From Alphaproteobacteria bacterium (GTDB taxonomy: Bacteria; Pseudomonadota; Alphaproteobacteria; UBA828): a stretch of 64,000 nucleotides of DNA. Position numbers and translations under genes: made by a program. The notes under the pieces are model-generated. The model was not told the DNA's origin and searched no databases. It was given only the letters and a program-made list of their open reading frames with translations. Where the stretch lies: positions 128,001 through 192,000 of the forward strand of contig CBDEFM010000002.1 in assembly GCA_965237415.1 (NCBI GenBank), in the 5' to 3' direction. Positions 37,419 to 56,705 of this stretch are shown here, piece after piece (positions within the stretch are counted from its first letter, which is position 1; every line of letters begins with the position of its first letter).

Positions 37419-37461
37419 CGCCGCCCCGCCCCTCACCGCGTTCGCGTCCGACGCCCCGTTT

Positions 37462-38170
37462 CGTCATGGCCGGGCATGCCCGGACTCGTTCCGGGCATCC
37501 GGCCATCCGCGGGGCAGCCCGGCAGGATGGAGGGGGACGAACGCGCGGATGCCCTGATCCCCGGCCATTCCCCCCACGCCGTCATGCCCGGACTCGTTCC
37601 GGGCATCTTCTTCCGCCAGGCCCGTCAGAGTGGGCGATCACGTGGATGGCCGGAACTAGTCCGGCCATGACGCGGTGGGGGCGTGGGCGGTCTGAAAACC
37701 ACCCCGAGACGAAAACGGGATTCCGCGAAACATTAATTCTGAAGCGGGATTCGCCGGGATTAAGTGGGATAAGTGGGATTCCACGGGCCAGCCGACCCCA
37801 GGCCTCCTTTGCCGTGGCCCCATGACTCTCCCTTCCCCACATCATGGCGCGATCTTCGCCCAAGCGCCGCGCGCCTTGCACCGCACCTTGGTCCGGGGAA
37901 GTACCGCGTGCCTGCAAGGTCACGCGCGCGGGACAGGAGCGCGGCCCGCCCCCACCTCACCCCGGCCCTCTCCTCCCCCGAGGGGAGGAGAGGGAGAAAA
38001 GGCTGGCGCCGCCCACGTTCCTCCCCCGCCCTCCGGGCCCTAGAGGACGAGCATGGCCCATGCCACCTGCGTCCCCTGTCCGCCCTTCTGCGTTTGAGAA
38101 GAAGAGCAAAGTCGGTGCCGCCTGCGTCCCCCCTCCGCCTTCGGGGGAGGGGGACAGGGGGAGGTGGGTT
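37462..38170. repeat. cluster of REP-like palindromes and dispersed repeats
   Basis: CATGCCCGGACTCGTTCCGGGCATC twice (37475, 37583); GGATGGCCGGAACTAGTCCGGCCATGAC (37644); GGGAT-phased repeat (37736-37787); CCCTCTCC..GGAGAGGG-type hairpins (about 37950, 38126). Confidence 0.85.
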
Positions 38171-38176
38171 GGGCCG

Positions 38177-39496
38177 GTACAGACCGGATAGATAGGTAAC
38201 AGAATGGACCGGATAGATGGGTGACAGGTTATGGCAGGGCCAGGAGGTGGCCGATGCCGTGGAAGGAGACCTGTCGCATGGAGGAGAAGTTGGTTTTTGT
38301 CGCAGACTGTCTGCGTGGCGAGTTGCCGATGACAGCGCTTTGCGAGGACTACGGCATCAGCCGCAAGACGGGCTACAAATGGCTCGGTCGCTATCGCGAG
38401 CACGGCCCGGAGGGCCTGGTGGAGCGCTCTCGTGCGCCGCACCGTCATGGTCGGTCGATGGCGCCGGAGATGGCCGAAGCGATTGTTGCTCTGCGCAGGC
38501 AGCGTCCCCATTGGGGTCCGCGCAAGCTGCGCGCAGTGCTGATGGGAGAGCGCCCCGAGGCGGTGTGGCCTGCGGCCAGCACGATGGGCGATCTGCTGCG
38601 TGCGGAAGGGCTGGTGAGCGCCCGCCGCCGGCGTCGTCGGGTAGCTGCGCCTGGTCGGCCGTTCCGTGCCGTCACCGCACCCAACGATGTGTGGTGCATC
38701 GACTTCAAGGGTTGGTTCCGCACCCGCGACGGCGAACGCTGCGACCCGCTGACCGTCAGCGACGCTTACAGCCGTTTCCTTCTGGCCTGTGTCATCGTCC
38801 CGCCCCGGACCGACACGGTCCGTGTGGCGGTCGAGCAGCTCTTCAAGCGCTACGGCCTGCCTCTGGCCATCCGCTCGGACAACGGGGCACCGTTCGCCGG
38901 AACGGGCGCGGGCGGACTGTCTCGTCTGTCGGTCGGCTGGATCAAGGCCGGCATCGCGTTGGAGCGCATCGAGCCGGGCCAGCCCCAGCAGAACGGACGG
39001 CACGAGCGCATGCATCGGACCTTGAAGGCCGAGACGGCCAAACCGCCGGCCGCGAGTGCGGGCCAGCAGCAGGTCCGCTTCGACCGCTTCCGCCAGGACT
39101 TCAACGACAACCGTCCCCACGAGGCGCTTGGCCAGCAGCCGCCTGCGGCGTTCTACCGGCCCTCGCTGCGGCCTTACCCCGAACGCCTGGACGAGCCCTG
39201 GTACGATGCCTGGCACGCCATGCGCCGGGTGCGCACCGACGGGTCCATCAAGTGGGGCGGCGACCTGGTCTTCATCAGCGAGACGCTGAAGGGCGAACCC
39301 GTCGGCATCGCCGAGACCGACAGCGGCGACTGGATCGTTCGCTTCGCCGACATCGACCTCGGCATCATCGATCGCCGGACGAAAAAACTTCATGGCTTCC
39401 GCGCGGCCCGGCCGGGCCGCGCGGAAGCCAAACAAACGACGAACACTGTTACCCATGTAACCGGTCCATAGCGTTACCTATGCTTCCGGTTGCACA
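38177..39496 (+). mobile_element. IS481-family element
   Basis: Left end GTACAGACCGGATAGATAGGTAAC; right end (rc) TGTGCAACCGGAAGCATAGGTAAC; internal repeats of the end motif; GCCG flanks both sides. Confidence 0.85.
38254..39471 (+). CDS. IS481-family transposase
   Basis: MPWKE, GISRKTGYKWL.RY, WCIDFKG, RSDNG, QQNGRHERMHRTLK (DDE). Confidence 0.93.
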   Translation: MPWKETCRMEEKLVFVADCLRGELPMTALCEDYGISRKTGYKWLGRYREHGPEGLVERSRAPHRHGRSMAPEMAEAIVALRRQRPHWGPRKLRAVLMGERPEAVWPAASTMGDLLRAEGLVSARRRRRRVAAPGRPFRAVTAPNDVWCIDFKGWFRTRDGERCDPLTVSDAYSRFLLACVIVPPRTDTVRVAVEQLFKRYGLPLAIRSDNGAPFAGTGAGGLSRLSVGWIKAGIALERIEPGQPQQNGRHERMHRTLKAETAKPPAASAGQQQVRFDRFRQDFNDNRPHEALGQQPPAAFYRPSLRPYPERLDEPWYDAWHAMRRVRTDGSIKWGGDLVFISETLKGEPVGIAETDSGDWIVRFADIDLGIIDRRTKKLHGFRAARPGRAEAKQTTNTVTHVTGP

Positions 39497-39574
39497 GCCG
39501 CCCCGCGTCCTTGGGCTGCTACGAAGTGACGAAGCCCGAATTACGCGTTTCAGATACCGCCGCCGGACCTCCGC

Positions 39575-39765
39575 TCAGGAATCCGCGCCATGCCCGGCCG
39601 TCAACTCGTGATCGTATTGGGCGGCCTCGGCCGGTGGCTCGGCGCGACTGATCGCCTCAATCTCGGCGTCGGAGAGCTCTTCTACGGCAAGCGCTTGACG
39701 CTGCGGGCGTTTGACGCGCTCATACTCGCTCAATGGGGTAATCACGCGCCGCTTTCTTTCATTCC
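39575..39765 (-). pseudogene. Phd/YefM-type antitoxin remnant (5' truncated)
   Basis: SEYERVKRPQRQALAVEELSDAEIEAISRAEPPAEAAQYDHEL resembles the C-terminus of alphaproteobacterial Phd antitoxins; recognised from memory only. Confidence 0.55.
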
Positions 39766-39903
39766 GTACGGTTGCGACATCACGGTAGCTGACACTACGC
39801 TGCGAATCGGAGTAATATACTGCGACCGTCGCGCAAACCAAATGGACAGAGATTGGTTGGTGACGAAAGTCCGAGACCAACACGGGCGGTTTAGGATGAA
39901 GCC

Positions 39904-40851
39904 ATGAGTGCTCCAAGAGCCTTTATTTCTTACTCGTGGGACGACGATTCACACAAGCAGTGGGTCGCCGACTTAGCTACTGATCTTCGCAATGATGGTG
40001 TGGATGCCAAATTAGATCAATGGCATGCAGTTCCAGGCGATCAGCTGCCGGTCTTTATGGAAAGAGAAATTCGAGAGAACGATTATGTTCTAATTGTTTG
40101 CACACCCAACTATCGCTTGAAATCCGATGCCAGAAAGGGAGGTGTCGGCTACGAGGGCGACATAATGACCGCTGAGGTTCATACTCAGGGAAATCACCGG
40201 AAGTTTATTCCGGTTCTTGCGAGAGGGACATGGGAAGAATCTGCTCCGTCGTGGTTGAAGGGAAAGTATTACGTTGATCTGAGCAACGAAGCGAATTATG
40301 GGACCAATTACTCAGGCCTTACGGCTACACTGCTCAATCGAAGACCAACTGCTCCGCCGGTACGAACGCTGCCGACACCGTCCGCACGGCCCGCACGGCC
40401 CATACCAACGCACATGGAAAGCGAGAGCAAGGCCATCGCAGATGAGCCAATCAAGATTATTGGTGTCATCGTCGATGAAGTTACTGTGCCGAAGCTGAAT
40501 AATACACCCGGCTCGGCACTCTATGCTGTACCACTTCGTCTTAGCCGGGCACCTTCACAGTTATGGTCCAATATATTCGTGCAGACGTGGAATTGTCCTC
40601 CTAGCTTAACCACTAAACACCGCCCCGGAATTGCTAGCGTGCAAGGCGCGAGGATCATTTTGAACGGCACGACAATAGACGAGATTAGGAAATATCATCG
40701 CACCACTCTAATATCTTGCATCAACGCCGCGAACAGAAGGGAACGAGAGATCCATGAGATCCAGCGCCAAGAGAACGAGTCGTTATCCCGCAAAATAGCC
40801 TCTCATCGCAAGGAAGTGGAGGACGTAGCAGCGGACTTATCTTTCGACTAG
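39904..40851 (+). CDS. TIR/SEFIR-domain protein with uncharacterised C-terminal domain, AT-rich
   Basis: AFISYSWD..HKQWV..LA..LR..GVDA.LDQW...PG...FME; VLIVCTPNY; GGVGYE. Confidence 0.88.
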   Translation: MSAPRAFISYSWDDDSHKQWVADLATDLRNDGVDAKLDQWHAVPGDQLPVFMEREIRENDYVLIVCTPNYRLKSDARKGGVGYEGDIMTAEVHTQGNHRKFIPVLARGTWEESAPSWLKGKYYVDLSNEANYGTNYSGLTATLLNRRPTAPPVRTLPTPSARPARPIPTHMESESKAIADEPIKIIGVIVDEVTVPKLNNTPGSALYAVPLRLSRAPSQLWSNIFVQTWNCPPSLTTKHRPGIASVQGARIILNGTTIDEIRKYHRTTLISCINAANRREREIHEIQRQENESLSRKIASHRKEVEDVAADLSFD

Positions 40852-41047
40852 CGTCTTGCTTTTAGACAACAAATATAGGCGGTGCAGACGTAGTCCACTT
40901 TAGGCGCAAGTTGCGACTCTCCGCTATCACCTCCCTTTGCTCCGACAACATTGGTCCCCGACTTGGTGACCGCCTAACCACACTGTGTCGCCGGTAGTGT
41001 GCTATGGTCACCGGTAACACCAATATGGCGATAGGGAAGCGGAAGGT

Positions 41048-42223
41048 GTGATGACCTCCAACCGGATGCCTGGCCTGGATTTCGGGCTCGGCGAGACGGC
41101 GGACATGATCCGCAGCTCGGTCGAGAGCTTCGCGCAGGCTGAGATTGCGCCGCGGGCGGAGGAGATCGACGCGAGCAACGAGTTCCCGCGCGACCTCTGG
41201 CCGCGGCTCGGCGATCTCGGGCTTCTCGGCATCACCGTGGATGAGGAGGAAGGCGGCAGCGGGCTCGGCTATCTGGAGCATTGCGTCGCCATGGAGGAAG
41301 TGAGCCGGGCGTCGGCCTCGGTCGGGCTCAGCTACGGCGCGCACTCCAACCTCTGCGTCAACCAGATCAAGCTGAACGGCACCCCCGCCCAGCGCGCCCG
41401 CTACCTGCCCAAGCTGATCTCGGGCGAGCACGTCGGCGCGCTCGCCATGAGCGAGCCGGGCGCGGGCTCGGACGTGGTGGGCATGCGCACGCGGGCCGAA
41501 CGCCGGGGCGATCGCTACGTCCTCAACGGGTCCAAGATGTGGATCACCAACGGGCCGGACGCCGAGGTCCTCGTGGTCTACGCCAAGACCGACCCCGACG
41601 CCGGCAGCCGGGGCATCACCGCCTTCCTCATCGAGAAGGGCATGCCCGGCTTCTCGACGGCCCAAAAGCTCGACAAGCTCGGCATGCGCGGCTCAAACAC
41701 CTCAGAATTGGTGTTCGAGGACTGCGAGGTGCCGGCGGAGAACGTGATCGGCGAGCCGGGCCAGGGCGTGCAAGTGCTGATGAGCGGGCTCGACTACGAG
41801 CGCACGGTGCTCGCCGCCGGCCCCTTGGGCATCATGCGGTCCTGCATGGACATCGTGCTGCCCTACGTCCACCAGCGCCAGCAGTTCGGCCGGCCCATCG
41901 GCACCTTCCAGCTCATGCAGGGCAAGCTCGCGGACATGTACACGGCGATGAACGCGGCGCGGGCTTACGTCTACGCCGTGGCGCGCGCGTGCGATCGCGG
42001 CGAGACCAGCCGCAAGGACGCCGCCGGTGCCATCCTCTTCGCCGCCGAGAAGGCCACCTGGATGGCGCTGGAGGCGATCCAGGCCCTGGGCGGCAACGGC
42101 TACGTCAACGAGTTCGCCACCGGGCGGCTGCTGCGCGACGCCAAGCTCTACGAGATCGGCGCCGGCACCAGCGAGATCCGCCGCATGCTCATCGGCCGCG
42201 AGCTCTTCGACGAGACGGAGTGA
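41048..42223 (+). CDS. ivd: isovaleryl-CoA dehydrogenase
   Basis: [50 protein letters not shown]. Confidence 0.95.
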
Positions 42224-42258
42224 CCGCGCGCGGGCGCTGACAGGATCGAACGCGCGCC

Positions 42259-42395
42259 CTCCACCCTACCGGGCCGCAGGCCCGGACGACGCGACTGCGC
42301 CGCGCGCGTATGCGCGTAGGCAAGCGAGCGTCGCGCGTATACACGCGCGCGGGAGCACGTTACTCGCGCCCGCCGTTGAGGGATATGAACGAGTC
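42259..42395. repeat. 137-bp dispersed repeat, copy 2
   Basis: Reverse complement of 28612-28748. Confidence 0.92.
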
Positions 42396-42402
42396 TAGGC
42401 GC

Positions 42403-42429
42403 AGCGTTACCCATGCTTCCGGTTGCACA
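42403..42429 (+). mobile_element. solo IS481 right end
   Basis: AGCGTTACCCATGCTTCCGGTTGCACA versus AGCGTTACCTATGCTTCCGGTTGCACA at 39470-39496 (1 mismatch in 27). Confidence 0.85.
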
Positions 42430-42487
42430 CTTCGGGGCGCTTGCCGGCGGTTGCGGTGCTTCCTATCGTGTCGTAGAGCATCCCTCA

Positions 42488-42575
42488 GCCCGCGTGGCGG
42501 AATTTGGTAGACGCAACGGACTTAAAATCCGTTGGCCCTAGGGCCGTCCCGGTTCGAGTCCGGGCGCGGGCACCA
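42488..42575 (+). tRNA. tRNA-Leu(UAA)
   Basis: Acceptor GCCCGCG/CGCGGGC-A-CCA; anticodon arm ACGGA-CTTAAAA-TCCGT; long variable arm; GGTTCGAGTCC T-arm. Confidence 0.97.
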
Positions 42576-42664
42576 AGCAGATCGATGAGTCAGGGAGGGA
42601 AGGGGGAGTGCCGGCATCGGGCGCGGCGCCTATCGGCTCCCTCGCGTCGTAATCCGAGGCCTGA

Positions 42665-43537
42665 TTGAGCGATCCCTCCGATAGCTATTCCCAGCACGCG
42701 GCTCTCTTCACCCGGGTCTACGATCTCGGGGACCCGAGCCCCTACTTCTCCACGTTGAGGCCGACCGGTTACCGAATGCCGGTGGCGTTGGCCGGGGCGC
42801 TGGAGGCAATCCATGCGCCGCTCGGTGCCGTGCGCGGCGCCGGGCATAGCCCGAGGCTGCTGGACTTCGCCTGCGGTTACGGAGCCATCGGCGCGTTGTT
42901 GCGCCATGACGTCTCGATGGCGGAGATCTATGCCCGGTACGGCGAGCGGCAGTGGCGGCCGGACGATGGCCGGCGTTATTGGGAGGCGGACGCCGCGTTC
43001 TTCGCTGCCCGGCGGGCGGAACGGGCGGCGTTCGAGATCGCCGGTATCGACATTGCCGGAAACGCGCTCGATTACGCGTCCGCCCTGGGCTTTGTCGATC
43101 GAGCCTTTCACGAGAATCTCGTGGACGATGCTCCCAGCGATGGGCTGAAGCGCTTCCTTCATGGTGTGGACTTGGTCGTCGAAAGCGGCGCTCTGGGGGC
43201 GATGCTGCCGGTCGCGTTCGCGCGCGTTTTCGATTGTGTCGGCGACGAAAGGCCGCCCTGGTTTCTCTACAGCCCTCGTCCCGATGTGAATTGGACCGCG
43301 CTGAACGGGTTGTGGGCCGAACGGGAGTATCGCACGGAAAGCTTCTGCTCCCGGCCGGTCCGCTACCGCAAGCCGTTGGACGCGCAGGAGCGGGCGGACA
43401 TGCTTCGCCGCTCCCGAGGGTTCGGCAAGCCGGACGAGGCCATCATGCGCGACGGATATTTTCTGGTCGACCTGACGCTGGCGAGACCCGAGGCCGATGC
43501 CGGCAACCCGCCGATCGTGCAGTTGCGGGGACGCTAG
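42665..43537 (+). CDS. class I SAM-dependent methyltransferase-like protein
   Basis: LLDFACGYG motif I, GIDIAGNALDYA; TTG start uncertain. Confidence 0.7.
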   Translation: MSDPSDSYSQHAALFTRVYDLGDPSPYFSTLRPTGYRMPVALAGALEAIHAPLGAVRGAGHSPRLLDFACGYGAIGALLRHDVSMAEIYARYGERQWRPDDGRRYWEADAAFFAARRAERAAFEIAGIDIAGNALDYASALGFVDRAFHENLVDDAPSDGLKRFLHGVDLVVESGALGAMLPVAFARVFDCVGDERPPWFLYSPRPDVNWTALNGLWAEREYRTESFCSRPVRYRKPLDAQERADMLRRSRGFGKPDEAIMRDGYFLVDLTLARPEADAGNPPIVQLRGR

Positions 43538-43778
43538 GCCTCTCCCTCCCAACTCTCCGGATCATGGTGCGCTGCACGGCGCGCGGTCCTTCCGTCAGGA
43601 TTGCGACATGAAGCGCAAGAGCGAGCGGACCACGGCAGGCGGGATGAGCGGGCGTGAGCGACCCGATTCCGCGCGCACGATGCTATCTGGCGCGCCCGCG
43701 ACCGTTCAGGCGCAGGCGACCCGGGCGTGCAAGACGCAATTTTCCGCGCGTACGACCCTTCGGGCGTGCGCGACTTGT

Positions 43779-43831
43779 CCCGTGGAATCCCACTTATCCC
43801 ACTTAATCCCGGCGAATCCCGCCTCAAGAAT
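43779..43831. repeat. GGGAT-phased about 52-bp repeat, inverted copy of 37736-37787
   Basis: Reverse complement ATTCTTGAGGCGGGATTCGCCGGGATTAAGTGGGATAAGTGGGATTCCACGGG. Confidence 0.9.
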
Positions 43832-43863
43832 AGTTTGTGTTTTGTGCGGGACGCGCGCGGGGC

Positions 43864-43945
43864 CGCGTGATGTGAAGGACGCGCGGGGGCGCGTAATATG
43901 AAGGACGCGCGGCGGCGCGTAATATGAAGGACGCGCGGCGGCGCG
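43864..43945. repeat. 26-bp tandem repeat x3
   Basis: CGCGTAATATGAAGGACGCGCGGCGG; first unit slightly divergent. Confidence 0.92.
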
Positions 43946-44003
43946 CGATGCCGGACACAAGTCGCGCTTGAGGCCGAAGCCCCGTTGCCGACGGGCGCCG
44001 GGC

Positions 44004-47600
<3,597 letters not shown>

Positions 47601-47762
47601 CGGCGCCGCCCTGCGACCCCAGCGATCGATTCCGCCCCCATCGACCACAAAGCGGCGCGCTTGTCCAACCGCCGCGGCAGCCGCTGTTCACGATGTTGCG
47701 AATTCACGACCGGCGGACGATGACGTACGATGCATCCGCTCCGGCACCTTGGAGGGAGAGCC

Positions 47763-48611
47763 ATGGCCGCGCGGCTCGTCGACCGGACGGTCGGGATCGG
47801 GGACGGCATCGATCTGCATTATATGGAGGCCGGCGCCGGCAGGCCGCTGATCATCATCCCCTCATGGTCGCTGACCGGCGCGGCCTATCGGCACCAGCTT
47901 CAGGAGCTGTCGCGAACGCGTCGCGTGATGGCGTTCGACATGCGCGGCCACGGCGACTCGACCACCCCGGCGGGCGGCTACCGCGTGAGCCGGCTCGCCG
48001 CCGATCTCCGTGCCGTCATCGAGCGGCTGGAGCTCGACCAGGTCGATCTCATGGGCCACTCGATCGGCTCATCGATCATCTGGAGCTACATCGACCTTTT
48101 CGGCGAGGACCGTCTCGGGCGGCTCGTGTTTGTGGACCAGGCGCCGTCGGTGACCGCGAAGCCCGATTGGTCGGCGGCGGACCGCGTGACTTATGGCTGC
48201 CTGTTGCCCGACCTCGATGCGCTCGCCGAGTTCTACCTGCAGGTGCTGGCCGCCGAGACCGCCGAGGCGACCGTGCCGGTGATCGCCCGCCTCTTCTCGC
48301 CGTCGCTGCCGGCAGCCGAGTTGCTCTGGTTCGCGCGGGAGATCTGCAAGCTGCCGCGCCGGCACGCGGCGGACCTGCTCTACGACCACTGTGGGCTCGA
48401 CTGGCGCGACGTGATCAAGCGGGTGCGGCGGCCGACTCTGGTGGTGGGCGCGGAGGCGAGCATCTTCTCGGCGGAGTCGCAGCGCTGGATCGCGGCGCAG
48501 ATCCCCGGTGCCGAGGTCGAGATCTTCAAGGCCGGCGAGGGCGGCTCGCACTTCATGTGCTACGAGAACCCATCCAAATTCAATGCGCTGGTGGAAGCCT
48601 TCCTCTCCTGA
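47763..48611 (+). CDS. alpha/beta hydrolase
   Basis: DMRGHGDS, GHSIG, GGSHFM. Confidence 0.88.
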   Translation: MAARLVDRTVGIGDGIDLHYMEAGAGRPLIIIPSWSLTGAAYRHQLQELSRTRRVMAFDMRGHGDSTTPAGGYRVSRLAADLRAVIERLELDQVDLMGHSIGSSIIWSYIDLFGEDRLGRLVFVDQAPSVTAKPDWSAADRVTYGCLLPDLDALAEFYLQVLAAETAEATVPVIARLFSPSLPAAELLWFAREICKLPRRHAADLLYDHCGLDWRDVIKRVRRPTLVVGAEASIFSAESQRWIAAQIPGAEVEIFKAGEGGSHFMCYENPSKFNALVEAFLS

Positions 48612-48849
48612 GGCACGGCCTTTCTCCCCCACGTTGTATCCCGCTCGCTCGCTACCCGGCTTATGGCGGCGGTATTGGCACCGGCTGCCGGCCTCGGAAG
48701 CCATCATCGCGCCAATGCCGCCGCCCGGCTTCGCTCCGTTACGCCAGCCGCCAAGCCTGGATTAATAGTTATCATTGTAGTAACATTAGACCGGACCAGT
48801 CACGGAGTAACCGTCATCGGTTCAATATTCAGTTGTTGAGAGGAATATC

Positions 48850-51800
48850 GTGACAAGTAAGATAGAAAAAAGCCCGGAAATTGCGCACCAAGATCGAGTT
48901 GCGCAGGTCTATTTTGGGATGTTGAAGTGGGGCGCAGCAGGCGAGATCCTCCGTCAACGAATCGATTGGATGGCGGATCAGGCGCAGGGTCCGCGAATCC
49001 TGGACGTGGGGTGCAGCGAAGGTGTCTTGGAAATTCTCTTGGCCCGTGAGGGCTTCAACGTCACCGGTGTGGACATCAACGCCGAGGCGCTTGCCTTTGC
49101 CCGAGACCTACTCGCTCAGGAGCCGGAAGAGGTCCGCGCCCGTGTGCGCTTTGTTCACGGCGATCTGGCGCAAGCGCGTTTGCTCGACGATCGCTTCGAT
49201 ACGCTGGTGATGGGGGAGATTCTGGAGCATTTGGAGGATCCTCAAGAGTTACTGGATCGGAGCCTCGACCTCATTCGCCCGGATGGCCGGGTGATCATCA
49301 CGACACCCTTCGGGTATCATCCCGACGAAGATCATCGACAGACATTCTGTCTCTCAGATTTCATCGCGCTCGCAAAACCTCGTTGCGCTCTGGAGTATCT
49401 TCGAGTGGAAGGCGGCTACATACGCATGGTTGGCCGCGTCTCCAGTTCAACAGAGAGTTCCTGGCAGCAGCTCGACAGCGATCAGCTGCTCAGCATGACC
49501 GAGGCTGCGTCGGTGTCCTCTCAGCAGCGATTGTACGGCAATATCAGCGGGCACAAGAGGCGCGTGAGTTCGCTTGAGCAGCGGGTCAAAGAGGGTGATG
49601 ACAGGGCAGCGAAATTACAGAAGGATGTAAAGGAAGAAAGTAGCAAGGCAACTAGGCTATGGCAAGAAGTGGAGGAACGAAAGAGCAGGGAAGCTAAGCT
49701 ATGGCAAGAAGTAGAGAACCGAAAGGCCAAGGCATCTGAGCTGCGGCAAGAACTCGATGCGGGAAAGGCCAAGACAGCTGAGCTGCAGCAAGAACTCGAT
49801 GCGGGAAAGGCCAAGACAGCTGAGCTGCTGCAAGAACTCGATGCGGGAAGGGCCAAGACAGCTGAGCTGCTGCAAGAACTCGATACGGGGAAGGCCAAGA
49901 CAGCTGAGCTGCAGCAAGAACTCGATGCGGAAAGGGCCAAGACAGCTGAGCTGCTGCAAGAACTCGATGCGGGGAAGGCCAAGACAGCTGAGCTGCTGCA
50001 AGAACTCGATGCGGAAAGGGCCAAGACAGCTGAGCTGCAGCAAGAACTCGATGCGGAAAGGGCCAAGACAGCTGAGCTGCTGCAAGAACTCGATACGGGG
50101 AAGGCCAAGACAGCTGAGCTGCTGCAAGAACTCGATGCGGAAAGGGTCAAGACAGCTGAGCTGCAGCAAGAGCTCGATGCGGAAAGGGCCAAGACAGCTG
50201 AGCTGCTGCAAGAACTGGATGCGGAAAGGGTCAAGACAGCTGAGCTGCTGCAAGAACTCGATGCGGGGAAGGCCAAGACAGCTGAGCTGCTGCAAGAACT
50301 CGATGCGGGAAAGGCCAAGGCATCTAAATTGCAGCGAGAGCTTAAGAAGGCAAGAGAAGGGGAGGTCAAACTAAGGCGAAGCATTCGATGGCAGTTGGGA
50401 ACATTATTCGTCGAGGCGGCCCGTCGTCCATGGCGGGTAGTTCGACTGCCGCTCGACCTGACTCGGCTCGCTGTGGTCGCCTTCAGACGACGTTACAACG
50501 TATCCAGCAACAACGTCTCTACGCGTAACCCTTCCCATCCGTCACCCCCGATGACCAAGAATCGGGGAAACATGCGTGAGGCGCTGGCTCGTCCCGGTGG
50601 CCGCACGGAAGTGCCAACGGCAACAAGTCTGCTGTCAGCCGGTTCATCCAGCGAACAGATGGTCGATTGGATCACGGACCAAGTAGAAGGCCACAGAGTC
50701 GCGGTGGTTGGATGCGACAACACAGCATTGCTCGAATCACTGGATCAGCTGCGTTTCAATGTGCGTACCTACCAACTCGATTCCTCGGTCTCGGAACCGG
50801 TTTTGGTTAAGGGCGAAGTTGGCGATGGGTCTCAAGAGGAGCCAGGTCGTAGTTTGGTAACAGATTTCTTAATCCCCGAAGCGGAGAGAGCAGTTGGCTC
50901 ATCCGGCGAGGCAGATAGTGTAATCATATGTGAAATGCCACGAGCCGGAACGGAGCCCGAGGCAATGCTCAACTACGCACGAGATCGCCTATCGCAACCT
51001 GAAGCTAAGGTGATTATCGTTCAGCCACGGTTTAACGCCTTTCCACGAGATGGAAAGGATTCCGACCTGACATCGCTTTTGACGGCGCTGAGAACGTCCA
51101 CCGTTCCCGAGTACCTCTCGCTCGCCAACGGCAGCCTCCACTTTGTCGGCCGATTCGGCCGACCGAGTGCGGAAGTATGGTCGCAGTTTGAGTCCGGGGC
51201 ATGGCCGAAGGTGACCAATGAGGTCGTGGAATCGCTCCAGTGCCGCAAGAGCAGGGAAATCAGCGCTCTCGAGCAGCGCGTGCAGGACGTGCTGGAGAGT
51301 ACATCGTACAGGGCCGGCCAGATCCTGGTAACGTCCGCGAAGGAGCCTCGAACGCTGTGGAAGGCTCCTCTTCGACTGTGGCAACTATATCGCTCATCAT
51401 GGGCACGCACGCGGCAGAGTAATGTCGGGCCTTCGCCCTCTGGTTTAACGCCTACCATAGACATACCCGCCTTGAAGACACCCCCAACGCGGAGCGAGGG
51501 AGCTCCGGTTGTGGCGGCTATACTGGACACCTTTACGGAATATTGCTTGCGCTATGAAGCAGATCTTGTTCTTTTGACCCCGAAACAGTGGAAGCGGCAA
51601 CTGGAGCGGGCGCAACCGACATTTCTTCTAGTGGAATCGGCCTGGTCGGGAAACAACGGCGAATGGCGCTACTTGCTCACCAACTACAAGAGCCGGGACG
51701 TCAATCCTCTACGCGACTTGGTCAAGCACTGCCGCGAACACGGACTCACAACTGTGTTCTGGAACAAAGAAGACCCCCCAAATTTCGATGTCTTTATAGA

Positions 51801-53178
51801 TGCGGCGAAGGAGTTCGACTTCGTTTTTACAACCGATGCGGATTGCATACCAAAATACAAAGAGATATGCGGACATGACCAGGTGTATCTTATGGCATTT
51901 GCGTGCCAGCCACGCCTGCATAATCCTTGCCGGGACAAATCCTGGCCACGCTACCCAGTTTGTTTCGCTGGGAGTTGGATGGAGAAATATTCGGAGCGGA
52001 GGCGGTCTTTGGACGACCTGCTCGAGCCCGCTCTAGCCTTCGGATTGCATATCTTCGATCGTAATTTTAAAGTGACCGGGTATGACTCTAGGTACCGGTT
52101 TCCCGATCGCTATCAGAGTGCGATCAAGGGATCCTTGGACTACGAGCATATGCTCACCGCATATCGCTGTTACGACGTCATGGTGAATGTCAACACCGTG
52201 ACAGACTCCCCTACGATGTTCTCTCGGCGGGTATTCGAATGTCTAGCCTGTGGGACACCGGTAATTTCCACTGATTCAGTAGGTCTGCGGGCTATGGTGA
52301 GCGGCTATGTTCGAATCACGCGCAGTTCGCAGGACACGACCTCTCACTTGCAGGAGCTACTGAGCGACGAGGAGCGACGGATGCGCGAGGCGCATCTTGG
52401 ATATCGTCACGTGCACACGCATCACACTTACAGACACCGGATGAAAGAAGTGTTTCTCCAGGTTGGAGTAAAGTCGAACGGCTCCGCACGTCAGCCATCA
52501 GTGAGTGTGGTCATTGCGACGTGTCGCCCGAACAATGTAAAATTCGCCATTGAAAACTATAGGAAGCAGGTGGATGCGGAGAAGGAGCTGTTGCTGGTTC
52601 TGAACAACGCGATATTCGATGTAGAATCCATCGAGGCGCGAACTAAAGATCTCCATAATGTGCGCATCGTCCAGGTTGACGGAAGTGTGACCCTCGGGGA
52701 GAGCCTTAACATGGGAGTAAAGGAGGCGTCGGGTTACTATATTGCAAAGATGGACGACGACGATTACTACGGAGAGAACTATCTTTCTGACATGATGCTG
52801 GCAGCGGATTTCTCAGAAGCCGACATTCTCGGTAAGGGAACATACTTTGTTCATATGAAGGCCGGAAATATAACGGCGCTGCGGAGCGTCGCGAGCCAGC
52901 ATGAGTTCACAGATTTGGTTGCTGGAGCTACCTTGACAGGCCGCCGAGAAGTGCTACGAGAGATTCGTTTTCCGGATGGTACAAGGGGGGAAGATAGTAG
53001 CTTGTTGGCGAAGGCGAGCAAGGCGGGTTGCCGAATCTATTCGGCTGACGCGTTTAATATGCTGGTGGTTCGAGGGACGGATCATCGGAGACATACTTGG
53101 GATATAGGTGATTCGGATTTAAAAAAAAATTGTCGGAATATACGCTCCGGTTTGGAATGGGCGCGCGTCATGATCTGA
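48850..53178 (+). CDS. 1442-aa multidomain glycan-synthesis protein: SAM methyltransferase - repeat coiled coil - degenerate methyltransferase - CgeB-like GT - GT2
   Basis: ILDVGCSEG, GEILEHLED; FLLVESAW, FWNKEDP, FTTD, TMFSRRVFE...CGTP; SVVIAT...AKMDDDDYY...GED. More AT-rich than the flanks. Confidence 0.88.
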   Translation: MTSKIEKSPEIAHQDRVAQVYFGMLKWGAAGEILRQRIDWMADQAQGPRILDVGCSEGVLEILLAREGFNVTGVDINAEALAFARDLLAQEPEEVRARVRFVHGDLAQARLLDDRFDTLVMGEILEHLEDPQELLDRSLDLIRPDGRVIITTPFGYHPDEDHRQTFCLSDFIALAKPRCALEYLRVEGGYIRMVGRVSSSTESSWQQLDSDQLLSMTEAASVSSQQRLYGNISGHKRRVSSLEQRVKEGDDRAAKLQKDVKEESSKATRLWQEVEERKSREAKLWQEVENRKAKASELRQELDAGKAKTAELQQELDAGKAKTAELLQELDAGRAKTAELLQELDTGKAKTAELQQELDAERAKTAELLQELDAGKAKTAELLQELDAERAKTAELQQELDAERAKTAELLQELDTGKAKTAELLQELDAERVKTAELQQELDAERAKTAELLQELDAERVKTAELLQELDAGKAKTAELLQELDAGKAKASKLQRELKKAREGEVKLRRSIRWQLGTLFVEAARRPWRVVRLPLDLTRLAVVAFRRRYNVSSNNVSTRNPSHPSPPMTKNRGNMREALARPGGRTEVPTATSLLSAGSSSEQMVDWITDQVEGHRVAVVGCDNTALLESLDQLRFNVRTYQLDSSVSEPVLVKGEVGDGSQEEPGRSLVTDFLIPEAERAVGSSGEADSVIICEMPRAGTEPEAMLNYARDRLSQPEAKVIIVQPRFNAFPRDGKDSDLTSLLTALRTSTVPEYLSLANGSLHFVGRFGRPSAEVWSQFESGAWPKVTNEVVESLQCRKSREISALEQRVQDVLESTSYRAGQILVTSAKEPRTLWKAPLRLWQLYRSSWARTRQSNVGPSPSGLTPTIDIPALKTPPTRSEGAPVVAAILDTFTEYCLRYEADLVLLTPKQWKRQLERAQPTFLLVESAWSGNNGEWRYLLTNYKSRDVNPLRDLVKHCREHGLTTVFWNKEDPPNFDVFIDAAKEFDFVFTTDADCIPKYKEICGHDQVYLMAFACQPRLHNPCRDKSWPRYPVCFAGSWMEKYSERRRSLDDLLEPALAFGLHIFDRNFKVTGYDSRYRFPDRYQSAIKGSLDYEHMLTAYRCYDVMVNVNTVTDSPTMFSRRVFECLACGTPVISTDSVGLRAMVSGYVRITRSSQDTTSHLQELLSDEERRMREAHLGYRHVHTHHTYRHRMKEVFLQVGVKSNGSARQPSVSVVIATCRPNNVKFAIENYRKQVDAEKELLLVLNNAIFDVESIEARTKDLHNVRIVQVDGSVTLGESLNMGVKEASGYYIAKMDDDDYYGENYLSDMMLAADFSEADILGKGTYFVHMKAGNITALRSVASQHEFTDLVAGATLTGRREVLREIRFPDGTRGEDSSLLAKASKAGCRIYSADAFNMLVVRGTDHRRHTWDIGDSDLKKNCRNIRSGLEWARVMI
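49723..50310 (+). repeat. 14 x 42-bp tandem repeat encoding (K/R)AKTAEL(L/Q)QELDA(G/E)
   Basis: 588 bp equals exactly 14 units; degenerate units on both sides. Confidence 0.97.
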
Positions 53179-53550
53179 TCGTTGCAATGTGATGGTTGGA
53201 GGCATCGCGCAATTTGGGTCGTTCCATCCCGAATCGGTTAAAGCTCAAGGTCAGGTTGCAGAGTGTAGGCCTTTGGCAGTGGTAGCGGCTATGAAGCTCG
53301 GGGAGTGGCTTGCAAACGCGCGCCCCTGAAGTGGCGAGGGCAGCAGGGAAAGGGGGCCAGAGAAGCGGGGGCGACGAGGAAAATTCGCGAGAAGCACAGG
53401 CCATCCGAGCTTTGGGACAGGGCATCTGTGCTTTAGGAATGGTGCGAACGGAAGAATGGGTTGAGGTTTGACAGCTATCGGCCTTTTACCTAGCGTCGCG
53501 TACCGGCACACGGCTCGCCGGCGCCGGGGGAGGGCCCAGGGGATAGCGAT

Positions 53551-54231
53551 GTGACGATCGGGGCGGTCCTTCCGGTCAAGGATTTCAGCCACGCCAAGCA
53601 GCGGCTGGCGGGCTTCCTCAGCGCGGTCGAGCGCCGGCTGTTGTCCGAGGCCATGGCCGAAGACGTGCTGGAGACTCTCTCTCAAGTGTCGGAATTGTCG
53701 GAGATCATCGTGGTGACCCGCGACGAGCGGGCCCGCGAACTCGCCGCCCGCCACGGGGCACGGGTACTTGCGGAACCCTCCAACGACGGCCAGAGCGCGG
53801 CGGTGGAGAGGGCTGCCGCGGCGCTGGGCCGCGCCGGCGTGGAGAGTTTGCTTCATGTGCCGGGCGACGTACCCGGCGCGAGCGGGGACGAGATCGCAGC
53901 GGTGATGGCGGCGCACGGGAGCGCGAGCGATGGCGCGGCGGCGGTGACACTGGTGCCATCCCACGATCGGCGCGGCACTAACTGCGTGCTTTGCTCGCCG
54001 CCTAACGTGTTGCCATTCGCCTTCGGCCACGAGAGTTTCGGGCCTCACTGCGAAGCGGCGCGCGCGCAAGGCATCGCGCCCCGGATCATGGCGCTGCCGG
54101 GCCTCGGCCTCGATATCGACACGCCCGACGACCTGCGCGGCTTCTTGGCGCGGCCGGCCGCAGGCCGCACCCTCGACTATCTCCGTGAGAGCGGTATCGC
54201 CGAGCGCCTCCTGGTAACCGACGCGGCCTGA
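53551..54231 (+). CDS. cofC: F420 biosynthesis guanylyltransferase CofC/FbiD
   Basis: PVK..AKQRL, GDVP, GTN, FG..SF..H, LDIDTPDDL. Confidence 0.92.
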   Translation: MTIGAVLPVKDFSHAKQRLAGFLSAVERRLLSEAMAEDVLETLSQVSELSEIIVVTRDERARELAARHGARVLAEPSNDGQSAAVERAAAALGRAGVESLLHVPGDVPGASGDEIAAVMAAHGSASDGAAAVTLVPSHDRRGTNCVLCSPPNVLPFAFGHESFGPHCEAARAQGIAPRIMALPGLGLDIDTPDDLRGFLARPAAGRTLDYLRESGIAERLLVTDAA

Positions 54232-54236
54232 GGCGG

Positions 54237-56705
54237 ATGCACGAGGCAACCAGCGATCTGCTTTCGGCGGTGCAGGGGGGCCGCCGCCCGGATGCGACGG
54301 AGGCCCTCGCGCTCGCCGCCGAGGACGACTTGGCACCGTTGCTCGAGTGCGCGGCTGCGCTCCGCGACCTGGCGCACCCCGATATCGTGACGTATTCGCG
54401 CAAGGTCTTCATCCCGCTCACCCATCTCTGCCGCGACGTCTGCCACTACTGCACCTTCGCCCGGCCGCCGCGCCGGGGCGAGACGGCGTTCATGACGCCC
54501 GAGCAGGTGCTGCGGGTGGCGGAGGCCGGCGCTGCCGCCGGGTGCAAGGAGGCGCTGTTCACCCTCGGCGACAAGCCGGAATTACGATATCGCGCCGCGC
54601 GGGAGAACCTGGAAGCCTTGGGTTATGGCAGCACGCTCGCCTACCTCGCCGCCATGGCGAAGCTGGTGCTGGAGGAGACGCCGCTGCTGCCGCACCTCAA
54701 TCCCGGCGTGCTGAGCCGCGAAGACCTGCGCGCGCTGCGTGCGGTCTCCGCCTCGCAGGGCATGATGCTTGAGAGCGCGTCCGAGCGGCTCTCCGCCAAG
54801 GGCGGGCCTCACTACGGCTCGCCGGACAAGCGGCCGGCAGCACGGCTCGAGACGCTCCGCCTGGCCGGCGAGGAGGCGGTGCCGTTTACCTCCGGCATCC
54901 TCATCGGCATCGGCGAAACCCGAGAGGAGCGGATCGAGGCCCTGCTCGCGCTCCGCGATGCCCATGATGCCCACAGGCACATCCAGGAGATCATCGTTCA
55001 GAATTTCAGGGCCAAGCCGGGGACGCGCATGGCTGCGGCACCGGAGCCAAGCCTGGATGAGCTGCTCTGGACCATCGCAGTCGCGCGCATCCTCTTCGGC
55101 GCGCACGCGAACATCCAGGCGCCGCCCAATCTGAGCCCCGGCGCGCTGCCACGGCTGGTCGCGGCGGGGATCAACGACTGGGGCGGCGTCTCCCCGGTGA
55201 CGCAGGATTACGTCAATCCCGAGGCGCCGTGGCCGCATCTCGACGCGCTGGCACGCGAGACTGCCGCTGCCGGGAAGACGCTGGCCGAGCGGCTCACGAT
55301 CTATCCGTCCTACGCGCTTGCAGGCGAGCGCTGGCTCGATGCGGCGTTGCGCGAGCGGGTGCTGAAGACGATCGATGCGCAAGGCTATCCCCGTACCGAC
55401 GCCTGGGTCACGGGCGCAGGCGAGGCGCCGCCGGCGGATCGCACACCCGCGCCGGCCGTCGTGGCGCCCGACATCGAGCGCCTTTTGGCCCGCGCCGAAG
55501 CTGGCTCGACCCTCAGCGAGGACGAGCTGGTGCGGCTCTTCGAGGCGCGCGGCGGCGCCTTCGACGCGGTGTGCGCGGCTGCCGACGGGCTCCGGGCACG
55601 GGTTAGCGGGCCACAGGTTAGCTATGTGGTGAACCGCAACATCAACTACACCAACGTCTGCTACTTCCGCTGCCAGTTCTGCGCCTTCTCCAAGGGCAAG
55701 ATGAGCGAGAATCTGCGCGGCCGGCCCTACGACCTGCCACTGGAGGAGATCGTGCGGCGGGTACGCGAGGCGTGGGAACGCGGCGCGACCGAGGTCTGCC
55801 TCCAGGGCGGCATCCATCCCGACTACACCGGCGAGACCTATCTCTCGATCTGCCGCGCCATCAAGGCGGCAGAGCCCGCGATCCACGTCCATGCCTTCTC
55901 GCCGCTGGAAATCTGGCAAGGCGCCGCGACGCTGGGACGAACCGTGCCCGACTTCCTCGCGGAGCTGCAGGAAGCTGGATTGGGCTCGCTCCCCGGCACG
56001 GCCGCCGAGATCCTCGACGACGAGGTGCGGGCCGTCATCTGCCCCGACAAGATCGCCACCGATCAATGGCTCTCGGTCATGGAGGCCGCGCATGGGCTGG
56101 GCCTGCGCAGCACCGCCACGATCATGTTCGGCCATGTCGATTCGCCGCGTCACTGGGCGCGCCACCTGTTGCGCGTGCGCGCCTTGCAGGAGCGCACGGG
56201 CGGCTTCACCGAATTCGTGCCGCTTCCCTTCGTCGCGATGGAGGCGCCGCTCTATCTCAAAGGCCGCGCTCGGCGCGGGCCGACCTGGCGCGAGGCTCTG
56301 CTCATGCACGCGGTGGCGAGGCTCGCGCTCAACCCGGTCATCGCCAACATCCAGACCTCGTGGGTCAAGATGGGGCCGGAGGGGGCGGCGGCCTGCCTCC
56401 GCGCGGGCGCCAACGATATCGGCGGCACGCTGATGAACGAATCGATCACCCGCGCCGCCGGCGCGAACCACGGGCAGGAGTTTCCGCCGGGCGAGATCGA
56501 GGCGCTGGTTGAGGGGCTGGGGCGCACGCCGGTGCAGCGCGCGACGCTCTATCAGCCCGCGCCCACCGCGCGCCGGGCCGCTGCGCAGGGCGCGGCACCG
56601 CTCGCCCCGGTGGTGAACGCGCCCGCCCGTCGCTATGAGCGGCGCGCAGCGGCAAGCGATCTGGTTCGTCCCGGTCTTGAAGTCACTGCACCGGCGGGGG
56701 AGTGA
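54237..56705 (+). CDS. fbiC: FO synthase, fused CofG-CofH
   Basis: Two radical-SAM motifs, CRDVCHYC and CYFRCQFC; YSRKVFIPLT; NRNINYTN. Confidence 0.95.
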   Translation: MHEATSDLLSAVQGGRRPDATEALALAAEDDLAPLLECAAALRDLAHPDIVTYSRKVFIPLTHLCRDVCHYCTFARPPRRGETAFMTPEQVLRVAEAGAAAGCKEALFTLGDKPELRYRAARENLEALGYGSTLAYLAAMAKLVLEETPLLPHLNPGVLSREDLRALRAVSASQGMMLESASERLSAKGGPHYGSPDKRPAARLETLRLAGEEAVPFTSGILIGIGETREERIEALLALRDAHDAHRHIQEIIVQNFRAKPGTRMAAAPEPSLDELLWTIAVARILFGAHANIQAPPNLSPGALPRLVAAGINDWGGVSPVTQDYVNPEAPWPHLDALARETAAAGKTLAERLTIYPSYALAGERWLDAALRERVLKTIDAQGYPRTDAWVTGAGEAPPADRTPAPAVVAPDIERLLARAEAGSTLSEDELVRLFEARGGAFDAVCAAADGLRARVSGPQVSYVVNRNINYTNVCYFRCQFCAFSKGKMSENLRGRPYDLPLEEIVRRVREAWERGATEVCLQGGIHPDYTGETYLSICRAIKAAEPAIHVHAFSPLEIWQGAATLGRTVPDFLAELQEAGLGSLPGTAAEILDDEVRAVICPDKIATDQWLSVMEAAHGLGLRSTATIMFGHVDSPRHWARHLLRVRALQERTGGFTEFVPLPFVAMEAPLYLKGRARRGPTWREALLMHAVARLALNPVIANIQTSWVKMGPEGAAACLRAGANDIGGTLMNESITRAAGANHGQEFPPGEIEALVEGLGRTPVQRATLYQPAPTARRAAAQGAAPLAPVVNAPARRYERRAAASDLVRPGLEVTAPAGE

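Follow-up and report, generated by a model that had tools for sequence, protein, structure and literature searches.

We analysed a 64,000-nucleotide stretch of an alphaproteobacterial genome (hereafter the window), focusing on one large open reading frame (ORF) whose 1442-residue product joins a methyltransferase, a long helical rod and two glycosyltransferase (GT) domains in a single chain (Table 1). The rod is encoded by a 42-bp variable-number tandem repeat (VNTR), and homologues of the protein carry different numbers of repeat units. The ORF begins with a GTG codon, and its 4.3-kb frame is intact. The methyltransferase, the repeat units, the amphipathic segment and both GTs listed in a preliminary description of this DNA are present; that list had missed a degenerate second methyltransferase domain (residues about 600–770) between the rod and the GT domains.

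Table 1. The target gene, its parts and its surroundings, in window coordinates (aa, amino-acid residues; AF2, AlphaFold2; pLDDT, predicted local distance difference test; GC3, GC content at third codon positions).
Feature	Position	Strand	Basis or detail
Island of about 16 kb ending with the target gene	37430..53465	.	Empty-site comparison with genus genomes
Fused ABC_membrane/ABC_tran exporter	44004-47648	-	Pfam; GC3 0.91
Alpha/beta hydrolase	47730-48611
Shine-Dalgarno-like GAGAGGA, 5 nt before the GTG start	48838..48844	+	Direct sequence reading
ORF of 1442 aa: methyltransferase, helical repeat rod, pseudo-methyltransferase, GT-B, GT-A	48850..53178	+	ORF/translation, Pfam
N-terminal class I S-adenosylmethionine (SAM) methyltransferase, putative chain-capping domain	48934..49440	+	aa about 29-197
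Helical rod, putative ruler	49477..50424	+	aa 210-525 (about 315 aa); AF2 helices and 14-aa register
42-bp VNTR: 14.3 near-identical copies (49721-50319) after 2.3 degenerate copies (49627-49725)	49627..50319	+	Tandem Repeats Finder
Conserved basic amphipathic segment (RRSIRWQLGTLFVEAARRPWR...), putative membrane or docking element	50371..50499	+	aa 508-550
Low-complexity Ser/Pro/Asn linker	50500..50646	+	aa 551-599; pLDDT <50 in both AF2 models
Degenerate second methyltransferase-like domain	50647..51156	+	aa about 600-769; BLASTP and AF2
Second short helical stalk (aa 774-816) and two further helices (818-856)	51169..51417	+	AF2 segment helices 215-257, 259-272, 274-297
GT-B-type glycosyltransferase, CgeB-like	51508..52464	+	aa about 887-1205
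GT-A-type GT2 with conserved DDDD/DxD motif	52501..53169	+	aa about 1218-1440
CofC	53551-54231
FbiC	54237-56705

Repeat array and copy-number variation

Tandem Repeats Finder gave the main array a period of 42 bp with 92% matches, no indels and a score of 988. Base identity at a lag of 42 is 0.92 inside the array and 0.26 in the remainder of the ORF; at the neighbouring lags (39–45) it is 0.20–0.30 inside the array. The 42-bp repeat is far beyond chance. Its units stand head to tail, are near-identical and have a length that is a multiple of three, the hallmarks of an in-frame VNTR, and they carry unit-specific variants in a fixed order. In the protein, a 14-residue register (xKxxxLxQE[LV]xxxx) spans residues about 237–516; its 14 central units (AKTAELLQELDAGK and variants) are near-identical, and the units at either end are degenerate. 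The core of near-identical 14-residue units announced in the preliminary description was thus recovered both by Tandem Repeats Finder and by the lag-42 identity, with 14 units in register.

In composition the rod resembles a coiled coil (L 16%, A 17%, E 17%, K 12%). One heptad register places L, V or T at position a and E at position g, where it faces K or R at position e; position d is occupied by L in half of the heptads and by G or E in the others. Coiled-coil models of SMC proteins match the region weakly (TIGR02169, E = 3.3e-8). A single α-helix (ER/K) domain was also considered for the rod and judged unlikely from the composition (Leu 16%, charged residues 42%). The AF2 model of residues 1–620 (mean pLDDT 72.3) forms helices at residues 210–367 and 372–525 with pLDDT values of 62–94; confidence in this model is below 50 from residue 513 on.

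To compare rods among relatives, we searched with residues 560–1442 as the query, which returned 410 proteins at E < 1e-3; the homologue data given here come from the best 120 of these 410. Rod length was measured as the distance between 20-residue anchors on both sides of the rod, and both anchors are present in 53 homologues. Anchor distances in this set span 91–301 aa, the rod in the window (301 aa) being the longest, and in 47 of the 53 the distance differs from that of the window by an exact multiple of 14. The six off-register homologues leave remainders of 7, 3, 4, 9, 13 and 13. The flanks change more slowly than copy number: one pair of proteins is 99.9% identical across 1110 flanking residues and differs by 49 aa in the rod, and in a pair with 97.8% identical flanks the difference is five units. 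The sister species (genome G004, assembled as one 6.2-Mb contig) has an orthologue at the syntenic site whose array holds 7.3 copies of the same 42-bp unit, against 14.3 in the window. Among close relatives, then, repeat number differs in whole 14-residue steps, which upholds the earlier proposal that the rod is a 42-bp VNTR.

Copy numbers from short-read assemblies could be collapsed, and this has to be set against any argument from rod length. However, homologues on contigs of 0.45–6 Mb have anchor distances of 134 (off-register), 175, 189, 203, 217, 231 and 245 aa, and these large contigs, with the other length on the single contig of G004, mean that assembly collapse cannot explain the length variation. 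It is also very improbable that the 14-copy array of the window is itself an assembly artefact. No contig in four public runs spans the array, the short contigs stopping at 49765 and resuming at 50292. Against an artefact, the genome is assembled in two contigs (96% complete), the unit variants follow a fixed order with no indels, and arrays of this kind, differing in copy number, occur in independent assemblies with megabase-scale contigs. As a separate observation, a single 160-nt contig in run X11 leaves the window at 49692 and continues into second-stalk sequence encoding ISALEQRVQD, a hint that a short allele without the VNTR and the pseudo-methyltransferase (residues about 282–800) co-occurs.

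Several clades of the family have retained the 14-residue quantum and expanded it independently of one another. Homologues that are 55–68% identical retain the 14-residue register with quite different unit sequences; in protein P0028 a different unit (GREAKLWQEVEERK x3) has expanded in another lineage, and P0051 has a super-repeat of 42 residues. A second clade (P0069–P0084), about 60% identical in the GT part and without the pseudo-methyltransferase, has a 14-residue unit of its own (EQQVQAGTEKAAQL) in 2.5–23.2 copies. With a threshold set here, internal tandem repeats were found in 63 of 121 proteins, and their periods are only 14 (49 proteins), 28 (10) and 42 (4). No repeat was detectable at the DNA level in the orthologue from a further genome of the genus (G007). 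That a 14-residue periodic rod is kept across diverged lineages and in the second clade argues for selection on the rod itself.

Enzyme domains and the proposed ruler model

The N-terminal SAM methyltransferase proposed in the preliminary description is confirmed by Pfam matches (Methyltransf_23/25/11 at residues 35–157, E = 7.5e-18, above the family thresholds), by a Rossmann-type methyltransferase fold at residues 29–197 in the AF2 model and by the cofactor-binding residues, with G54, C55, G58, D75, D105, G122 and E123 invariant or nearly so (20 homologues). In BLASTP the degenerate second domain aligns with this methyltransferase at 26% identity (E = 6e-13); motif I reads GCSEG in the N-terminal copy and GCDNT in the second, where AF2 alternates strands and helices in a Rossmann-like order.

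The CgeB-like GT and the GT2 that follows it, both named in the preliminary description, score above the Pfam gathering thresholds: PF13524 (Glyco_trans_1_2) matches residues 1069–1201 (E = 1.7e-18; 67.4 bits against a threshold of 25) and PF00535 (Glycos_transf_2) residues 1219–1334 (33.2 bits against 23.3). In the AF2 model of residues 560–1442 (29-row alignment, mean pLDDT 75.9), the two domains have pLDDT values of about 75–94. Many GT-B residues are invariant in homologues, and M1301, D1303 and D1304 of the GT-A domain are conserved. As in ruler proteins, GT modules lie C-terminal of the rod, here with conserved catalytic motifs.

The top Foldseek matches of the GT-B plus GT-A part are EXT1–EXT2 and EXTL3, bifunctional co-polymerases of heparan sulfate (7zay_B, E = 9e-11; 7au2, 8og4), over about 600–690 columns. 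Single-domain matches of the GT-A part are 6p61, SpsA, TarP and RmlT, and PmHS2, a heparosan synthase (8viw), appears after the GT-A matches. EXT1–EXT2, EXTL3 and PmHS2 place a GT-B-type domain before a GT-A-type domain in one chain, as here, but the superpositions are loose (TM-scores 0.19–0.26, rmsd 15–16 Å, 11% identity), and these proteins have neither a methyltransferase nor a rod. On the models, the exostosin likeness is one of domain order and of the fold class of alternating co-polymerases, not of shared family.

The amphipathic segment that had been noticed after the rod is borne out by its helical hydrophobic moment (0.61–0.66 in windows 516–542), its net charge (+2 to +4) and its conservation. 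It is nearly invariant in homologues: W514 and W528 never vary, and conservation reaches 90% or more at many residues nearby. A resemblance, seen by eye, between the basic motif after the long rod and a motif after the short stalk was dropped, as BLASTP gives no alignment.

Coiled-coil terminators act as rulers in the Wzm/Wzt pathway, as in WbdD, WbbB and O7 ORF6 (PMC11231755). Our account of these characterised systems follows extracts of that paper and of a review, according to which insertions in the WbdD coil raise, and truncations lower, the modal chain length of the O-antigen (PMC5082667). In O12 WbbB and in O7 ORF6, the terminator, the coiled coil and the GT modules are united in one polypeptide (PMC11231755), and the order of methyltransferase, rod and two GTs found here, which the preliminary description had taken for a ruler-type layout, matches the domain order of WbbB and of Klebsiella pneumoniae O7 ORF6.

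The O7 ORF6 protein (J Biol Chem 2024; PMC11231755) is, like the protein in the window, one large chain with an N-terminal methyltransferase-containing terminator, a central coil and two C-terminal GTs; its GT modules are annotated to residue 1414, it works with Wzm/Wzt, and its terminator lies at the far end of the coil. The likeness is drawn from description, and the two differ in several respects. ORF6 has a kinase and a carbohydrate-binding-module-like domain after the methyltransferase and two GT2 modules, whereas the protein in the window lacks the kinase, has an extra degenerate methyltransferase and a second short stalk, pairs a CgeB-like GT-B with a GT2, and carries a VNTR coil with natural copy-number variation. 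Orthologues of ORF6 are mentioned in alphaproteobacteria and cyanobacteria (PMC11231755). WbbB (K. pneumoniae O12/Raoultella terrigena) likewise begins with a terminator, continues with a coiled-coil ruler and ends in two polymerising GTs, but its terminator is a β-Kdo glycosyltransferase, and the extract describes no repeat-encoded coil (PMC11231755). In WbdD (Escherichia coli O9a and O8; K. pneumoniae O3 and O5), a parallel trimeric coiled coil holds the methyltransferase-bearing terminator about 20 nm off the membrane, and the C-terminus forms an amphipathic membrane region (PMC5082667, PMC11231755). Its polymerase, WbdA, is a protein of its own, whereas the polymerase is fused here; O9a WbdD, in addition, has a kinase.

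With moderate confidence, we take the gene to encode a terminator, spacer and polymerase in a single polypeptide, serving an ABC-transporter-dependent surface polysaccharide. At the cytoplasmic membrane, the GT-B and GT-A domains would take turns in extending a polymer of disaccharide repeats on a lipid carrier; judged by the gene context of relatives, the polymer is probably acidic and contains N-acetylmannosaminuronic acid (ManNAcA). With a helix rise of about 0.148 nm per residue, the rod (280 residues) would keep the methyltransferase up to about 41 nm from the polymerase. Chains reaching the length of the rod would be methyl-capped, and polymerisation would then stop. Slippage or unequal recombination within the VNTR would add or remove 14 residues (about 2 nm) with the reading frame kept, and such a gain or loss of a unit would shift the modal chain length. 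The domain layout, the copy-number variation and the gene context of relatives are observed; capping, an oligomeric rod and a dependence of glycan length on rod length are what we infer.

Several properties of the protein weigh against the ruler model. The AF2 monomer breaks the rod helix at residues 368–371, which implies a fold-back hairpin at the midpoint, between two nearly equal helices. T, G or E occupies half of the a/d core positions, most units contain a Gly, and the strongest hydrophobicity period is 2.8 residues (power 46.7) rather than 3.5 (8.9). The methyltransferase fold is generic: its nearest solved folds are the small-molecule enzymes OvsM, MtfA, UbiG and TehB, WbdD is not among the structural matches listed, and sequence similarity to WbdD is weak (E = 2e-4 to 4e-4).

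The fold-back and the likeness of the methyltransferase to small-molecule enzymes would suit a protein without a ruler, in which the rod forms an antiparallel fold-back or antiparallel dimer, the methyltransferase carries out internal O-methylation or acts on another substrate, and chain length is set otherwise, for example by coupling to export. In the same direction, the core of the rod has a period of 14 in which large layers (L6, L10) alternate with small ones (T3, G13), an arrangement that by our own reasoning would pack better staggered or antiparallel. We nevertheless consider this alternative improbable. Long homo-oligomeric coiled coils often fold back when they are modelled as single chains. 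In addition, the polarity of the protein, with the methyltransferase at the far end of the rod and the GTs at the other, is that of every characterised ruler protein (PMC11231755). A dimer prediction with two copies of residues 205–560 scored 0.05, below the mark, and counts neither way.

An unlikely but less remote alternative keeps the same enzyme and makes the length of its rod irrelevant: the repeat would merely oligomerise or space the protein, and copy-number change would be neutral slippage. Near-identical 42-bp arrays, here with units 92% alike, slip regardless of function; the lengths of the 53 homologues spread with no sign of a preferred value; and of the six that are off the 14-residue register, five are also off the heptad register, with the downstream frames intact. 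This alternative is opposed by the retention of the 14-residue periodic rod at 55–68% identity with different units, and again in the second clade, and by the characterised systems, in which rod length sets chain length (extracts of PMC5082667 and PMC11231755).

If the ruler model holds, the array may further be a contingency-type locus, in which gain or loss of 2-nm units gives heritable, reversible diversity in polysaccharide length and thereby graded escape from phage or host recognition, with glycan chemistry unchanged, in populations of uncultured and possibly host-associated bacteria. We put this forward tentatively, as a possibility that is rather less likely than not to prove right. 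Near-identical in-frame DNA repeats also change protein length between strains in the streptococcal M, alpha C and Rib proteins. In those surface-protein VNTRs the repeat lies in an exposed antigen, whereas here it lies in a cytoplasmic biosynthetic enzyme and would alter the length of a glycan.

The ruler design itself is already known. What is new is a VNTR-encoded rod whose number of units varies naturally in two clades, together with the GT-B plus GT-A polymerase and the duplicated, decayed methyltransferase module. A full-text literature search combining ruler or coiled-coil with tandem-repeat terms, with most subscription journals outside its reach, found no paper on a repeat-encoded, naturally variable ruler. 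Evidence for rulers has so far come from engineered insertions and deletions in a few enterobacterial proteins, and nature seems to have repeated the experiment many times: close relatives carry from a few to more than 20 units of 14 residues on an unstable repeat. If rod length sets chain length, they form a ready allelic series for a quantitative test of the ruler model. The same array would then allow wild populations to tune surface-glycan length rapidly, and it would offer glyco-engineering a modular part with which polymers of chosen length could be made. The ruler design would also extend to an exostosin-like GT-B plus GT-A polymerase and to uncultured lineages.

Pathway genes in relatives and in this genome

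Ten related loci were examined for pathway genes (L016, which is in G007, L018, L022, L024, L027, L036, L038, L039, L077 and L088; L020, L025 and L030 stand outside this count), with part of the ORFs scanned in L024, L038, L077 and L088. A Wzm/Wzt-type pair (ABC-2 permease and ATPase) lies directly upstream of the homologue in five of the ten (L018, L022, L024, L036 and L039). The L018 permease (273 residues) has no Pfam match of its own and matches the ABC2_membrane protein of the window's genome (E = 5e-44). UDP-GlcNAc 2-epimerase and UDP-ManNAc dehydrogenase genes adjoin in L016, L018, L022 and L027, and heparinase II/III-like genes in these four and in L024. Recurrent heparinase II/III-like genes and an exostosin-like order of folds together may indicate that the polymer resembles a glycosaminoglycan, or that it is epimerised or trimmed at the polymer level. 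L036 encodes the methyltransferase and rod as a protein of their own (398 residues), with a CgeB-like GT following, which is a split arrangement of WbdD type.

Two further features of these loci were noted. The methyltransferase-GT-GT2 gene is present as two tandem paralogues in L022 (9941–15565; 921 and 949 aa, both copies confirmed), L024 (9965–15753) and L025 (9911–15545). The Wzt-type ATPases of L018 (8396–9931) and L024 (8188–9939) have long C-terminal leucine-rich-repeat (LRR) extensions (512 and 584 aa in total), which may be a new kind of chain-end reader in place of a carbohydrate-binding domain. Such an extension could read the chain end, a point that counts against the alternative without a ruler.

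The genomic setting of the gene also counts against the ruler model. No ABC exporter was found nearby in the other five related loci (L016, L027, L038, L077 and L088, the last three scanned in part). Within the window, no glycan gene lies beside the target gene; the preliminary statement to this effect stands for the window, but relatives and other parts of the genome carry such genes. The gene is not clustered with wzm/wzt there: the only Wzm/Wzt pair of the genome is about 1.5 Mb away (G000:C2:1671996-1673705), among transposases and next to a low-GC GT2. Its Wzt, of about 250 aa, has no C-terminal cap-binding extension, which also favours the reading in which chain length is set without a ruler, and the Wzt_C profile (PF14524) has no match in the genome. 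A Mutator-family (IS256-like) transposase gene interrupts the only Epimerase_2 (wecB) gene (G000:C2:1273240-1275810; L101 6240–8807), separating its C-terminal half from its N-terminal half; an intact UDP-ManNAc dehydrogenase gene (wecC) lies next to the split gene. The pathway may be incomplete in this genome, and it would be broken should ManNAcA be the substrate.

The gene could accordingly be an orphan of a scattered, partly broken cluster that yields no product at present, an account to which we give little credence. It would explain the split wecB, wecB and wecC having a GC3 of 0.59–0.62, low like that of the target gene, and it would explain the distant wzm/wzt among transposases and the position of the target gene, alone at the edge of an island. 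Decay of the gene is opposed by its intact frame and by a dN/dS (ratio of nonsynonymous to synonymous substitution rates) of 0.22 against the G004 orthologue (last 936 codons; 0.16 for GT-B and 0.28 for GT-A), which places it under purifying selection; ManNAcA, moreover, is not established as the substrate. In G004, an intact wecB and a 99% identical Wzm also lie at distant sites, so scattering alone does not mean decay.

Island, surroundings and distribution

Genus genomes without the gene define an empty site: their DNA upstream of cofC matches window positions 36066–37415 and then joins 53465/53466–53610 directly (left side in at least four of eight loci, L104–L107; right edge in five of five). 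From these junctions, the interval is a 16-kb island with the target gene as its last member. The α/β hydrolase gene, taken at one stage for the border of the empty site, was the wrong choice; the true empty site joins an E1 dehydrogenase gene to cofC. The island is present in two of 21 genus genomes. Of these 21, three have a full-length match to the protein: the window's own genome, G004 (93% identity, same flanks) and G007, where identity is 55% and the context different.

The target gene is foreign to its host genome by GC3 (0.60 against about 0.9) and island location. The GC content of the ORF is 56–60%, against about 66–75% in the window and about 70% around the gene, and neighbouring genes have GC3 values of 0.84–0.94. 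The preliminary label of an AT-rich ORF is apt relative to the host but not in absolute terms. Synonymous divergence (dS) from G004 is uneven along the gene, at 0.03 over 50650–51450 (pseudo-methyltransferase and second stalk) and 0.18–0.23 over 51500–53170 (both GT domains), which suggests recombination between alleles. Scans around the gene for promoters (four, against 2.2 ± 1.5 expected) and terminators (four, against 4.2 ± 2.1 expected) were at chance level. Long ORFs first listed beside the gene (47693–48853 and others) are shadows in other frames, as judged by codon-position GC.

The island also contains an IS481-type transposase, a TIR protein, an acyl-CoA dehydrogenase, the fused ABC exporter and the α/β hydrolase. 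GC3 is mixed: the acyl-CoA dehydrogenase, exporter and hydrolase genes have values of 0.89–0.94, the TIR gene and the target gene 0.52–0.60. The fused exporter is an unlikely glycan exporter, given its host-like GC3 and an ABC type that differs from that of Wzm/Wzt.

The record closest to the protein by locus search (L017, a full-length match) is titled as an alphaproteobacterial metagenome-assembled genome (MAG), and relatives at 42–52% identity are mostly titled as Dehalococcoidia MAGs. Run X1, labelled a sponge metagenome, contains a 790-nt contig that is about 94% identical to part of the gene; with 43 differences, it indicates a relative in that run and not the habitat of the window's own organism. 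By itself, the GT-GT2 module is found in records of Nonomuraea, Bacillus, Listeria riparia and Aeromonas. Shorter members of the family (about 920–950 aa) cover 95–98% of residues 560–1442, and those scanned with Pfam have an active-looking N-terminal methyltransferase, which appears to align with the degenerate domain of the protein in the window. On this alignment, an N-terminal module of methyltransferase, rod and motif would have been added to the short form, after which the inner methyltransferase decayed.

Two minor features of the island were also observed. A low-GC gene (39904–40851, + strand), just 3' of the IS481-type transposase gene (38221–39471), encodes the TIR protein (315 residues; TIR_2/SEFIR domain at the N-terminus, E = 8e-21), a possible defence or eukaryote-like protein. 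The last non-coding stretch of the island, between the target gene and cofC, holds a 21-bp tandem repeat (53396–53438) in two copies with 81% match.

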